Shown here: positions 2,177 through 63,085 of the stretch, piece after piece
Numbering within the stretch: the stretch's first letter is position 1
How the letters are laid out: every line of letters starts with the position of its first letter
Assembly: GCA_951406725.2 (NCBI GenBank)
Contig: OX597832.1
Location: 37,634,001 to 37,698,000 of the forward strand
Direction of reading: 5' to 3'
DNA length: 64,000 bases
Source: Octopus vulgaris
Taxonomy: Eukaryota
Program-made: the position numbers and the translations under genes
The notes under the pieces: model-generated
The model's database searches: none
What the model saw: the letters and a program-made list of their open reading frames with translations, nothing else
What the model was told of the DNA's origin: nothing

Positions 2177-2378
2177 CATGTGACCGCGTGTGTACCGTTG
2201 GCGATGTTTTTCCTCTGTCTTCCCTTCTCTGGATCTTTCCTTCTCCTATGTTTTCGACGAAGAGCTCCGCTCGAAACGTTAAACCCTCCTTCTTTCCTGA
2301 GCGTCCAATAATACTACATTTGTTCCACGTCCGCGCTTTGTTGTGTTTTTTTGTGCTTTCTTGTTTGGATTAACTTTA
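2177..2378 (+). mobile_element. About 200-bp dispersed repeat, family C (probable Penelope-like terminal repeat) with a mutated hammerhead motif
   Basis: Homologous to 4760-4942, 8958-9148 and 34499-34700. Contains TCGACGA-A-GAGC-TCC-GCTC-GAAA-CGTT-AAAC at 2254-2284 and ends in (TA)n. Confidence 0.8.
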
Positions 2379-4759
2379 TATATATATAACATATATGTGT
2401 GTGTGTGTGTATACGCACAGACCAGTTAATTTGGGCATAACACGACACTTCTACACCTCTCTCAGGTGACTGCAGAACACGAAGATATTCAGTTAATTTA
2501 ACTAATTATACTCAGCACAATGTATTGAGTACTATCGTCTCGTTTTATTTACAAATTGTACCATTTGTGTATGCTAGCATCCACATATATGTATGTTTGT
2601 GTACGCACACACACACACACATATTTAGTATATACACAAATTTTATATAATAATGTATACATACATATATACGTATAACATATTCACAGAAACTTACATA
2701 TACATACACATATATTTACACATGCTTGTACACACAAACACAAATCTGCATGTGTATTTGGCCACAAGTCTCTGTTGTGTATGTATGTGTGTGCTTATTG
2801 TGCATGTGCGTATATTTCATCTTCTGAGCGTGCTCCTCAGTTTTTGATCTTGTGTGCCTCTATGAGTATTTGTATTAGTCTGCGCATATGTATGTTATAT
2901 GCGTCTATGTTATGCGTGCGTGCACATGATTGTGTGCGTGCGTGTGTTGTATGTGTGTGTGTGTGTCTGTGTGTGTTTGTTTGTGTCTGTATATATATAT
3001 GTATGCATGTATATATACATATATATACTTACCATGCTAACGTATAATTATGCATATATGTATATATATATATATATATATATATATATATATATGTGTG
3101 TGTGTGTGTGTCTGCGTGTGCGTTTATGTATGTATGTATAGTTATATATACATATATATATTATATAAACAAGTGTGTTTATAAGTTTACTTACGCAAAT
3201 ATGTGTCCATATACGTGTACACGTGTATCGTGTATGTATGTATGTATGTATGTGTGCATTTAGGTGTGTGCTAACACGATACGCATGTGTCTGTACGTGC
3301 GTACGACCATGTGTCTGATTATGCGTATGGGTTTGCTTATCTGAATGTGCACTTATATGTGTTTGTCTGTTTGTCTGTGTTTGTGTGTGCGTGCGTGCGT
3401 GCATGCATGCGTGTGTGCGTCTGTGCGTGTATGTGTGCGTGTGCGTGTGTGTGCGTGCGTATGTGTGTGTGTGTGTGCTATGATGTCAGCAAACAAGCAA
3501 CATCAAGCGAGAGTTCTGTTTACACGGAATGAAGCAGGTGGTTAGCTGGCAGCTATACCGAGATTTAACTTGTGTGATGAGAAAAAAAAAATGGCGGATT
3601 TTATTCATATTAAAGCGATGTTCTCTGTGTTTGCTTGTTGCTTTTCCTATTTGATATCGTTTGATTGTTTTATGTGTTTTCCTCGTATATTTTCGTGTTA
3701 TTTTGCTAATACATACACACACACAATATATATATATATATATATATATATATATATATATATATATATACATACATTGATACACATATATATATATATA
3801 TATATGTACATATATGTACATATATACATACATATATATATATATATATATACACATGTATATGTGTGTGTGTATATATGTATACTCTCGTATACATACA
3901 TATATATATATATGTATATATATATATATATATATATATATATATATATATATATATATATATATATACATTGACTAGTTGTTGACTTTATATCCTCCAT
4001 TCGTTGTTATTTTTATTCCCGTTGTTTTTCTATTTGTAATTTCCAACTTGGCGATCTGCAGCGAAAGAAATAGCAAACAAAACGGCGTGGCATTACTGCA
4101 TCGCTTTTGCTGCATTCTTGTTACTTTATTTTCTGTTATTTCTTGATTATATTGTATGTTTTATAATGCTATCGGATGTTATTAGCGTTGTTGTTGTTGT
4201 TGTTGTTGTTGTTGTTGTTGTTAGTAGTGGTGTGGGTGGTGCCGATGGTGTTCGTATTTGTGGCGATGTTAGTGTTTCTGATAACAGTGGTGGTTATTTA
4301 TGACGGCAGAAGTGTTAGCTACGGTTGTGGCGCTGCCAATGGCGGAGGGAATAGTAGTTAGTGTAGGACTAGTTGTAGTGATGGTAACAGGGATGTGGAT
4401 TTTAAGGTGATGATGATGATGATGATGATGATGATGATGACGATTCTCATGGAAAAGGTATCGTTATTGAATTTTGTAACTTGTTTACCATCCTGTCTGG
4501 GGTTCTGACCATAGGTATTTCAGACTCTTACCAGTTTGGCTTGGTCGATGTGCTTGATATTGATATTCAATCTTCTGTGTTTTTTGCTTCCGGTCACTCC
4601 TAATCTATGTATATATATATATATATATATATATATATATATATATATGTATCTATATATATATACACATATATATATGTATATATATATATATACACAT
4701 ATATATATACATACATGCATACATACATGCATACATACAGACAAACAGACAGACAGACA

Positions 4760-4942
4760 TAGTGAATCCAAATAAAAGAAGAACAAACAAGAAAAGACAA
4801 TAACGTGAGGACGTGGTACAAGACACTCATGAAATGAAGGAAAGAGGATTTAACGTTTCGAGCCTTGCTCTTCTTCAGAAATAGAGGAAAGTGCAAAGGA
4901 AGGGAAGACGGAGGAAGAAAATCGCCAACGATACACACGCGT
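4760..4942 (-). mobile_element. Family C repeat, diverged copy
   Basis: The reverse complement aligns by eye with the other three copies (GTGTGTATCGTTGGCGATTTT...CCACGTCCTCACGTT). Confidence 0.8.
4848..4882 (-). ncRNA. Minimal type-I hammerhead ribozyme with an intact catalytic core
   Basis: AUUU-CUGAAGA-A-GAGC-AAG-GCUC-GAAA-CG-UU/AAAU. Helix I is AUUU:AAAU, helix II is GAGC:GCUC, and the palindrome ACGU replaces helix III. Confidence 0.7.
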
Positions 4943-59905: not shown

Positions 59906-62900
59906 CCCCCAGTAGGTATTGCTGCGGCTGTGGTAAAATAATGTAGGCATTCTGATAAATATCAGTGATACCTGTGCGCGCAGATACAATGTGAACTGAG
60001 TCTGGATGAGATCCCAGCATAGGATTAAAACCAGTTCAGCTGATATTTCTTTCTTTGTCCATAAAGATACTCCATATAAAAGACAACACACACAGTGATG
60101 ATTAACGCTGTACATATATTCTGTAGCTCAATATAGCACTGGAATGTGGCACTGCTAACACTCCGGTAACCTGCGTATATGTATGTATGTATGTATGTAT
60201 TTATGTATGTATGTATGTATGTACGTATGTATGTATATATATATATATATATATATATATATATACATATATATATATATATATATATATATATATATAT
60301 ATATATATTGCATTCGTAAAAAGGTATGTTGCCGTCATGGAGATTCTCATAGTAGTAGACAAGGAATTTTTAACTCCTTTTTCTAATTTCGGTATGTGGT
60401 GAGGCAATTAGCTGAACCCTAATTATAATTATGCTTATAATTATAAAATATTTGCATAATTTTACCTATAAATGTTATTTTAATGCGCCGATCTACTTGG
60501 TGAAATTATTAATTGATTGATTGGTTGATTAATTAATTAATTTAACTGATAAATTTTTACCCATTTATTATTAATATATATATATATATATATTACACAC
60601 ACACACACACACATATATACAGACACACACACACACACATATATATATATATATATGCATATATATGTGTATATGTGTATATAGGTCTGGTTGTGTGTTG
60701 CGTTCTTGAGCAAGACACTATTTCATGTTGCTCCGGTTCACTCATCTGTGGAAATGAGTTGTGACGTCACAGGTGCCAAGCTGCATCGGTCTTTACCTTT
60801 CCCTTGGATAACAACGATGGTGTGAGACGGGAGGCTGGAATGCATGGGCAACGGCTGGTCTTCCATAAACAATCTTGCCCGGACTTGTGCCTTGGAAGGG
60901 GACTTTCTAGGTAGAATCCCACGGTCATTCATGACTGAAGGGGGTCTTTACCCTTTACATATTCATATGCGTATATATATATATATATATATATACATAT
61001 ATATATATATATATATATATATATATATATAATATATATATATATATATATATATATATATATATATATATATATATATATATATGTAGGTCCCGGGTTG
61101 AGTCGGGGTTAACCACAGTAAATAAGGTACTCTTATGTGGTACTCTTATAAGATACTCTTATATCTTATGTGTGACCGTGCGTTGCATCGCGCGTGTGTA
61201 TAATTTTGTTACAAATTGCCCGTTACTGAAAATGCGAGGTTTGGGATTCATTTTCCCCATACTCCTCCTGACTGTCATTCTAAATACATCATCAGTGAAT
61301 TCTTTGTCTTTTTTTGTTGTTTTTTCCCCTGATTTATATTGAGTCATCACACAGAAAAGTTAAAGGAAGCTTCAAAACTTTTTTGTTAGTCTCTCTCTCT
61401 CTCTCTGTCACTCTCTGTCTCTCTCTCTCTCTATCGGAATACGAAGCAAATTGGCCAGTTGAAAGGTGGCAGCATTTCAATCGTATACAATCAATGAAAA
61501 AGAAATTCCTAGCAGATAGAAAAAGTGGAAGAGCGAACGAAGAGTTAAAAACTACTAAGAATACTAAGCGACTATGAAGGAACCAGGTGATAGGACATAC
61601 ATAAACAGCTATTCATGTACACACACACACACACACACACACACACACACATACACTCACACACACACACACACACACACACACAAACACACACACACAT
61701 ATATATACACATACACAAATTCATATATACATACATGTATTCACATATGCATACATATATATATAGTAGTAGATAAATATATTTGTATATATACAGACAC
61801 ACTCACTTCACACATATGTATATAAATACGTACTTGTATGTGTGTGTATGCATCGATTTATTTTAATTGATTCTTTAAAGTCATTAGACGAATCTATACA
61901 GACACACACACACACAGAAACAGAAACACGCGTGCGCGAGCAAGGTAGGGTAGCGAGGGGATGAGGTGAAACCAAAAAGGAACGATTGGCTCAATTCTCA
62001 CGAATTTCTCACCAGAAATCAGTCTGGTGACAGCAGCATTAATTGGAATGTTGAAATACGCACACACATTCGTGCCCACATTAACGTATTAACATACATT
62101 CACGAATATACACATACACACACACTCTCACTCGCTTAAGCTTATACACACAAAAGCACACTCACACATGCAAATTTGATGTTAAAACCGCTAATGAAGC
62201 TTAATATACGTGTAAATTCACTCTTTCAGTTGCCCTTTTTCTCGCACAAACATCCATACATACATGTATATATATATATATATATAATATATATATATAT
62301 ATATATATATATATATATATATATATATATATATATATATATATAATTAATTAAGGGTAGAAATCAATATTTATCAATTAAAACCAGTGGTCTAGCATAT
62401 TAAAAAGAATCCGAAGATTAAAATATTTATATATACCAATTGAGGACTGAACACGAAAAGTGGACAGTCAACATGCTAGATATAGACGTCAAATCGTCAT
62501 TCTCCACAAAAGATTATATATATATATATATATATATAAATGTATTTCTATTCCTGAGCGTTATACTAATACATCTGTTTGTTTTGTACACCACCTGTCT
62601 TCGTTTTCGTAAACTTTCCCTATATATATATATATATATACATACGTGTGTACACACACACACACACACATCGGCACGCATACAAGAGCATAAGAAGAAC
62701 GCTGGTGATCGATTTCTCAAGATGTAGGTTAGTCGGTACAAATCTTTCGCTCAGTAAATTGTAGTCTGCTTATTTGGGCTCCGTTTCTCATCGATTCCTC
62801 CATACATTGTGCACCCTTCGCCAAGTGTTGCTTCTCGATCCAGAAAGGTATCTTTCTTACATACTCTTCATCTGTGTATGTATGCATGTATGTATATATG

Positions 62901-62927
62901 TGTGTGCGTGCGTACGTAATATATATA

Positions 62928-63085
62928 TAAAGTTTACGAAAATAAACAAAAGACGAAGGCAGGTGGTATACAAACAAACAGATGTATTAGTATTGCGCTC
63001 AGTAATAGAAAAAGTATTTTACGTTTCGAGCCTACGCTCTTCCACAGAAAGATACACAGAAAAAAACAAGGAGAGAAACAAGATA
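62928..63085 (-). mobile_element. Short repeat related to family C (family D), carrying a hammerhead motif with A6>U; partial inverted copy at 62544-62618
   Basis: Minus strand reads TTT-CTGTGGA-A-GAGC-GTAG-GCTC-GAAA-CG-TA-AAA (63050-63017). The downstream CTGAGCG..ATACTAATACATCTGTTTG is shared with 62544-62618 on the plus strand. Confidence 0.7.

Follow-up and report, generated by a model that had tools for sequence, protein, structure and literature searches.

The 64,000-nucleotide (nt) window analysed here (the whole stretch of Octopus vulgaris DNA at positions 37,634,001 to 37,698,000 of the forward strand of contig OX597832.1) holds five copies of a minimal hammerhead ribozyme motif, designated c1 to c5. 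Each is embedded in a repeat of 150-360 nt that ends at a TA tract and whose similarity to its relatives extends well outside the ribozyme. These repeats are almost certainly the 3' ends (pseudo-long terminal repeats, pLTRs) of related Penelope-like retrotransposons (PLEs). PLEs are an element kind already known; what appears new is that the dominant young lineages carry non-canonical ribozyme cores, with U in place of A at position 6 (A6U) or C in place of U at position 4 (U4C).

On the forward strand, c1 (2178..2376) is a ~200-nt pLTR of an apparently Neptune-type PLE, lineage A, U4C subfamily, and adjoins a (TA)n tract; its hammerhead (2250..2284, C3 at 2254, putative cut after GUU at position H17, 2280) has the core UCGACGA, which combines the inherited U4C with a private C3U. 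Also on this strand, c3 (8786..9147, 5' limit approximate) is a lineage-A copy that extends into a (CA)-rich 3' untranslated region (UTR) and stops ~15 nt short of where the 3' end usually falls; its hammerhead (9031..9065, C3 at 9035, putative cut after GUU at 9061) has a private C3A. A third forward copy, c4 (34500..34697), is a lineage-A pLTR of ~200 nt with a long (TA)n tract after it, and its hammerhead (34562..34596, C3 at 34566, putative cut after GUU at 34592) has the change G8A, of the CpG type and later than insertion. On the reverse strand, c2 (4762..4945) is a C-branch pLTR of lineage A/C with the canonical core CUGAAGA and loop AAG (4848..4882, C3 at 4878, putative cut after GUU at 4852), and c5 (62930..63082) is a 3' end of lineage B, subfamily B2, with a TA tract on each side; the core of its hammerhead (63016..63051, C3 at 63047, loop GUAG, putative cut after GUA at 63020) is CUGUGGA, with the lineage-wide A6U. 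An earlier note on this DNA had described the five motifs, and re-reading bears out its positions, the helix II GAGC:GCUC with loops UCC, AAG and GUAG, the GAAA-CG-UH segment, the additional A after A9 and (as letters) the four core differences that it listed. In helix I, the outer pair of c5, which it passed over, is C:U (private to c5; C:G in 36 of 45 relatives).

It is scarcely credible that the motifs are chance hammerhead look-alikes within an ordinary repeat. GCTCGAAACGTWAA, common to all five, has five exact matches in the window and one with two mismatches (at 11510, with no hammerhead core upstream of it); shuffled versions of the window have on average 0.42 matches with up to two mismatches, and none of 100 reaches six. 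The Rfam covariance models find no hammerhead at E 10 in either of the two regions tried, a subfamily B1 region and c2; the Rfam scan of the whole window has none among the matches listed (150 of 572, microsatellite matches dominating), and most isolated motifs fold no better than shuffles (z -2.1 to +1.5). But Rfam likewise fails on a canonical hammerhead elsewhere in this genome (in stretch L101, described below), and the location in a pLTR, the base after A9, the G10.1-C11.1 pair, the CG palindrome and the pattern at H17 are those of the published Penelope motif, to which the octopus motif is nearly identical in its Acropora Neptune version. The chance reading is answered by elements in which two hammerheads flank one open reading frame (ORF).

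No such element is found in the window. A repeat search and Tandem Repeats Finder see only microsatellites there, and tblastn with the B1 protein finds no match and no ORF remnant in it. They come into view from the rest of the assembly (2.8 Gb, 227 contigs), which was searched with c4, c5 and c2 as queries (the best 40 matches scored for each; 30, 20 and 20 loci retrieved). A 5' walk from c3 runs through a long (CA)-rich tract common to many copies, with an endonuclease fragment in stretch L089. In the blind stretch L149, a truncated ORF encoding a zinc finger and a GIY-YIG endonuclease is followed by a 3' UTR and then by a B hammerhead, the whole set between (TA)n tracts. A genome search with the L149 protein (best 144 of 19,942 candidates scored, all at least 95% identical) yielded 30 B1 loci; in 26 of these a B hammerhead lies 374-923 nt downstream of the endonuclease on the same strand. 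Hammerheads stand on both flanks in 12 of 18 B1 loci picked for long ORFs, with a period of 4,449-4,573 nt, and one B1 array carries four. The full unit reads 5' UTR, ORF (reverse transcriptase (RT), zinc finger, GIY-YIG), long 3' UTR, hammerhead, and occurs in partial or multiple tandems; in partial tandems the upstream unit is variably 5'-truncated, extending 382-1,440 nt before the hammerhead.

The B1 ORF encodes 963 amino acids (MPDPRS to GLN) with an RVT_1 match (E 3.8e-08), DKG, YIDD, CX4CxxC and CCHH motifs, and a weak GIY-YIG match (E 0.005, below the Pfam cut-off); homologues of the protein carry PF00078 and PF01541. The linker motif before the endonuclease is CSRPRCRTC in B1 and CSRSRCNTC in D (a further young family, found through the endonuclease search) and A. 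B1 is very young: over 1,755 nt of the RT-endonuclease region, the median difference among 17 dispersed long copies is 0.28%. In D, the ORFs are intact and share 68% identity with B1, and three of five loci show a two-hammerhead period of 6,116-6,202 nt. In 8 of 11 extended A/C loci a broken ORF is followed, 1.05-2.05 kb further downstream, by the hammerhead, and four of 30 B2 loci have ORF remnants upstream (within a 1.5-kb flank), three of them 76-89% identical to B1 and one ~50%, perhaps from another element; for A/C and B2 the hammerhead is seen on the downstream side only. The linkage to Penelope RT/GIY-YIG ORFs for which the earlier note had proposed to look is therefore there, and its description of the family as non-coding falls, longer copies of every lineage having such an ORF upstream. 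The minimal type-I hammerheads with palindromic helix III that it attributed to PLEs agree with both the motif and the ORF-flanking layout, and the association with (TA)n holds: copies end in, and sit between, TA tracts.

EN+ (endonuclease-containing) PLEs of the Neptune and Nematis groups have one RT ORF, a CX2-5CxxC linker, a C-terminal GIY-YIG domain with CCHH, and DKG, and a bias towards (TA)n targets is tied to Neptune (PMC8557442, Craig et al. 2021). By these shared features the octopus elements appear to be Neptune-type, although the linker also occurs in Nematis. A sub-branch of B1 (L149:7952-8025, L161, L162, L165 and others) has an internal duplication of ~32 nt right before the 3' end, which matches in size the optional 'tail' of Penelope elements. 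On the reverse strand, L149:156-3596 is an intact ORF of 1,146 amino acids that has motifs of an endonuclease and an RT and, by eye, resembles L1/Tx1.

The copies fall into A (c1, c3, c4; loop UCC), C (c2; loop AAG), B (c5; loop GUAG; subfamilies B1 and B2) and D. A tree of 22 natural endonuclease regions, drawn from this genome's copies and rooted at its midpoint, places A with C and B1 with B2, with D separate; at least three lineages (A/C, B, D) thus replace the single family first proposed. A high genomic copy number, also proposed, is confirmed. A blind sample of 99 ten-kb stretches at round coordinates (989,900 bases) contains 23 merged matches, 16 of them with a hammerhead (three shuffles: none), which scales to ~45,000 hammerhead-bearing copies per genome (Poisson 95% 26,000-74,000); four exact 29-30-nt patterns set a floor of 26,363 (the C loop being uncounted). 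The window is about five times denser than the genome average, at 78 versus 16 per Mb. Copies of different lineages frequently lie 200-600 nt apart (17 close pairs among the retrieved loci, in L007, L041, L053, L084, L095, L207, L296, L320 and others), a likely cause being that the TA tract left by one insertion is targeted by the next; neighbours of mixed lineage could form mixed hammerhead dimers.

The variant cores are properties of lineages. In a core census (234 unique copies, with 70 set aside because a hammerhead-containing query had retrieved them), all 55 B1 copies and 43 of 45 B2 copies have U at position 6, and C occupies position 4 in every one of 11 D copies and in 10 of 50 from A. 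In A, U4C travels with a diagnostic upstream base in 10 of 11 cases, and c1 has that base. Exact genomic matches tell the same for B (CUGU-N-GA 14,944, CUGA-N-GA 158, in the B scaffold) and, with the UCC loop, give CCGA 8,023 versus CUGA 3,238. A6U and U4C together make up 22,967 of the 26,363 exact matches; such counts favour young copies, but the blind sample, where 3 of 16 cores are CUGANGA, agrees with them. From this distribution, the A6U of c5 and the U4C half of the 'CU>UC' of c1 are inherited, and the C3A of c3 and G8A of c4 are decay after insertion (N7-G8 in A is CG in 31, TG in 12 and CA in 3 of 50 copies). Four independent lesions around an intact CUGANGA had been proposed; with A6U fixed in B and the U4C subfamily inherited, the consensus is mostly not CUGANGA, an outcome that the earlier note had itself named as refuting its reading and that applies to those lineages. 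That core is found in old A/C copies, and is missing from B (U6 in 98 of 100) and D (C4 in 11 of 11). Among the contigs of four sequencing runs (four organism labels) no alternative letter is listed at position 6, where unlisted rows prove nothing; and open-access text yielded no description of a hammerhead family with A6U or CUGUNGA, nor any of Penelope hammerheads in cephalopods (Repbase, Dfam and most supplements lay outside that scope).

What surrounds the variant position is kept. B and D share C3, G5, G8, A9, G12 to A15.1 and U16.1; the base inserted between 9 and 10.1, the G10.1-C11.1 pair and GAAA are all present; and in both, the palindrome at 15.2/16.2, the lack of a real helix III and a NUH site recur as ACGU followed by U, A or C. 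N7 is free (in B2: A 26, C 9, G 6, U 4). Among 67 distinct motifs helix II, C3-G8 and A15.1-U16.1 are paired in 90-96% of cells and show no double changes; helix II is invariant in sequence and thus offers no covariation. The structure-preserving variation claimed for the motifs consequently stands for a single pair, 1.4:2.4 (C:G 22, A:U 20, G:U 10, G:C 5), which differs by lineage and whose covariation score is reached by none of 500 shuffles, the rows being relatives. A branch of lineage A with G at position 17 (L074, L072, L075, L079, L089, L095, L096 and others) also carries A:U at this pair; its G17 would be a third inherited change, expected to block cleavage.

The 3' ends of the copies bear on how the elements are copied. 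In all five groups the distance from cleavage site to 3' end is 95-107 nt (modal values for A, C, D, B1 and B2: 105, 103, 95, 103 and 96). At tandem junctions the B1 unit continues through TATATAT into the 5' UTR, and the D unit likewise through TTATA; at terminal ends these TA bases pass into the (TA)n tract. Since copies end 95-107 nt past the cleavage site, the copied RNA was uncut (or re-joined) at that hammerhead. We infer that the nicked (TA)n target primes reverse transcription on an internal UA motif; alternatively, read-through into a flanking UA tract would yield identical terminal ends. In the Anolis element PAc (PMC11167929, Frangieh et al. 2024) reverse transcription starts internally, 111-118 nt into the ORF with the cut site at +26, that is (by subtraction) ~85-92 nt past the cut; the main template there is uncut RNA, and the ribozyme cleaves only with protein.

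Most copies are short, ~200 nt: of the incidental copies, 11 of 15 from A/C begin 93-112 nt before the cut, and 10 of 21 from B begin 83-113 nt before it. Of the best 29 A matches, 10 begin within the same 1-2 bases, at (C)ATTCAAAATG, and 2 extend beyond; genome-wide, after TAT, exact short starts of A number 783 versus 272 read-throughs. A hairpin is predicted at the start site in A and B2 (z -2.6 to -3.5; in c3 it has 7 bp, at 8945..8966 on the forward strand), is weak in B1 (z -0.7) and is not predicted in D. A sharp 5' limit of this kind would fit either an RNA 5' end or a stop of reverse transcription. The TCATTC at the start of short copies resembles the Drosophila initiator. Promoters of Penelope are internal to the pLTR, and in D. 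virilis the transcript begins within the upstream one (PMC2377424).

That the ~200-nt pieces are a self-propagating non-coding family (a solo-pLTR short interspersed element (SINE) or a retrozyme) with its own promoter and moved in trans is improbable. The recurrent start, the exact (TA)-to-start junctions, the promoter location and a window free of ORF remnants would all suit such a family; but ORF-linked copies occur in every lineage, B1 mostly reads through, and the U4C subfamily includes 233 short and 58 read-through exact matches. A search for end-to-start junctions genome-wide, made for lineage A alone, found one, with diverged units and a TA tract between them. Short and read-through members in one subfamily and a single TA-split junction make the short pieces look like by-products, and no retrozyme. 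Hence the solo-pLTR half of the description 'solo pLTR or retrozyme-like' stands, most pieces being short and of that aspect, and the retrozyme half fails for want (in lineage A) of short tandem arrays. Long copies require more than a linear template: at all 15 two-hammerhead loci the upstream unit extends at least 382 nt, beyond an RNA starting at -113, so that a circular, multimeric or switched template is needed.

The reading that accounts best for these limits, and which we hold to be probable though well short of assured, joins a TA-primed internal start of reverse transcription to a weak hammerhead, dependent on dimer or protein and tolerating A6U and U4C. The element's endonuclease would nick a (TA)n tract, and the freed DNA end would pair with the internal UAUA motif and prime reverse transcription there. 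Copying would commonly halt 90-113 nt upstream of the cleavage site, where the RNA begins or forms a hairpin, and so leave the ~200-nt pieces; occasionally it would pass one unit and leave a tandem. Two hammerheads in a tandem transcript might then pair through the ACGU palindrome and slowly excise a unit-length RNA, which could circularise and be copied for more than one round. (Single-strand folds and dimer cofolds do not predict an active double hammerhead; this is given no weight either way.)

A number of observations weigh against this reading. Tandems could arise from read-through transcripts or template jumps without a circle. In B1 the base that matches the A start is no sharp limit (104 exact short starts versus 1,907 read-throughs). 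Copies starting at the cleavage site number 44, versus 21 on the reverse strand in a control window, with no pile-up, and both sets lie at TA microhomologies. Position 17 is G in 13 of 50 lineage-A copies and helix I of D contains a U.U mismatch, both pointing to relaxed selection; and the covariation amounts to one pair and about three lineage-level events. The A6U core of the largest and very young lineage would likely slow self-cutting: single changes in the CUGA turn leave a model hammerhead with low activity (PMC9901934), and a natural A6C cuts at <0.1 per min, is slow in Mg2+ and favours Mn2+ (PMC3088659, PMC7151607). A6U may simply be dead. Finally, the assignment to Neptune over Nematis, made from features, is provisional.

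It is unlikely, but by no means negligible, that the hammerheads of B and D no longer cut, the fold being kept as a site for protein binding or positioning and tandems forming without cleavage. A6U is fixed in ~15,000 copies and U4C in ~8,000; in Anolis, catalytic mutants leave insertion in vitro unaffected and RNA ends at the cut site are not seen (PMC11167929); Naiad elements proliferate without canonical hammerheads (PMC8557442); monomer folds are predicted to place the core on the palindrome; and the genomic footprint of cut RNA is not clear. (A search for that footprint gave 14 hammerhead-less fragments, most beginning at +3 to +33; four listed rows are an internal duplication and one a locus edge. 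In the window, a hammerhead-less B2 3' fragment, at about 62543..62620 on the forward strand, lies between TA tracts and has its start ~8 nt beyond the cleavage site.) On the other hand, B1, B2 and D retain both catalytic guanines (G8 and G12), C3-G8 pairing and a NUH triplet that can be cut; the variation seen at N7, in loop 2 and at H17 (U, A, C) is that of working hammerheads; and U4C is a natural viroid variant, slow in vitro and yet sufficient in the viroid (PMC3088659, PMC7151607).

A bolder proposal, which can be put forward only tentatively, is that CUGUNGA is an overlooked natural core that cuts only when gated by the element's own protein, by a second copy or by a canonical-core sister acting in trans through ACGU. 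Slowing would have been selected because reverse transcription must copy through an uncut junction. If this is true, descriptors that fix CUGANGA miss ~23,000 of 26,000 exact copies here, and probably similar families elsewhere.

The hammerheads of PLEs show poor cleavage in vitro, and in one study insertion did not depend on it. Sister lineages that share a scaffold within one genome and have the cores CUGA, CCGA and CUGU, the variants being young, ORF-intact and abundant, amount to a natural test of the ribozyme's role. Active A6U and U4C cores would widen the natural hammerhead core; inactive ones would show an element spreading with a dead ribozyme. The copies also map likely start and stop sites of reverse transcription from the genome alone, and identify many short 'SINE-like' repeats of this genome as Penelope ends. 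(An octopus repeat annotation, PMC13282606, counts 31 recently active Penelope-like families; the part of it consulted makes no mention of ribozymes.)

Two further features of the window lie apart from this family. A lone hammerhead-like descriptor match with core CGGAUGA lies at 29670-29715 on the forward strand; descriptor matches occur at 29676 and 45,3xx, and reading of 29500-29900 finds no trace of the family there. Inverted repeats of 263 nt at 16613-16875 and 17680-17942 are 89% complementary and 804 nt apart, with no long intervening ORF; the pair looks like a non-autonomous DNA transposon.

Other hammerheads in this genome offer a first comparison. L101:2745-4765 (+ strand, with more copies on the - strand; G000:C1:20,000,001-20,010,000) is a 359-nt head-to-tail repeat of ~5.6 near-identical units that ends in (TA)n, each unit with a canonical type I hammerhead (CUGACGA GAGG..CCUC GAAA CCGG UC); unrelated in sequence to the PLE ends, it is a candidate for a true non-LTR retrozyme. 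A separate hammerhead family (L148, - strand, about 2250 from its end; L212/L271) has CUGAUGA, a longer helix II GGCUG..CAGCC and helix I ACAC:GUGU, and probably belongs to a different Penelope-like family. Animal non-LTR retrozymes, tandem and with canonical type I hammerheads (PMC7229834, Cervera & De la Pena 2020; bioRxiv 10.64898/2026.07.22.740005, Li et al. 2026), resemble the octopus pieces in being short, dispersed, hammerhead-bearing and related to PLE pLTRs. They are tandem units of 150-450 bp without a coding parent, whereas the octopus pieces are single, have a minimal motif and an ORF in longer copies; short head-to-tail canonical units (looked for in lineage A) and absence of a coding parent are not what is found.

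Minimal hammerheads in the pLTRs of metazoan PLEs have been described together with a dimer logic and with solitary copies that number thousands per genome (PMC4209133, Cervera & De la Pena 2014). They share with the octopus motif type I topology, a short helix I, the base after A9, G10.1-C11.1 and the palindromic CG at 15.2/16.2, as well as location in both pLTRs and truncated solitary copies in the thousands; close to octopus lineage A is the Acropora Neptune motif (CUGACGAA GGGC..GCUC GAAA CG UC). None of the 56 motifs of Fig. S3 in that study alters U4 or A6, which its descriptor requires, in contrast to the A6U and U4C fixed in young, ORF-intact octopus lineages. The A6C of phage Bcep176 and the U4C of a viroid change the same core positions and leave activity low but detectable; those are rare single cases, whereas in octopus the pyrimidine at position 6 is U, and an entire expanding lineage has it. 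The EN+ PLEs of Neptune and Nematis match in single-ORF layout, linker, DKG, CCHH, partial tandems and (TA)n targets, and the octopus elements differ from them in their long low-complexity 3' UTRs (~0.4-2.9 kb). PAc, a Poseidon element of Anolis carolinensis, shares an internal start of reverse transcription about 90-100 nt beyond the hammerhead cut, an uncut template and AT-rich targets. PAc, however, starts at a site non-homologous to its target and its hammerhead overlaps the start of the ORF, whereas the octopus end motif is TA-rich, matching the (TA)n target, and in B1 ~700 nt of 5' UTR follow the hammerhead.

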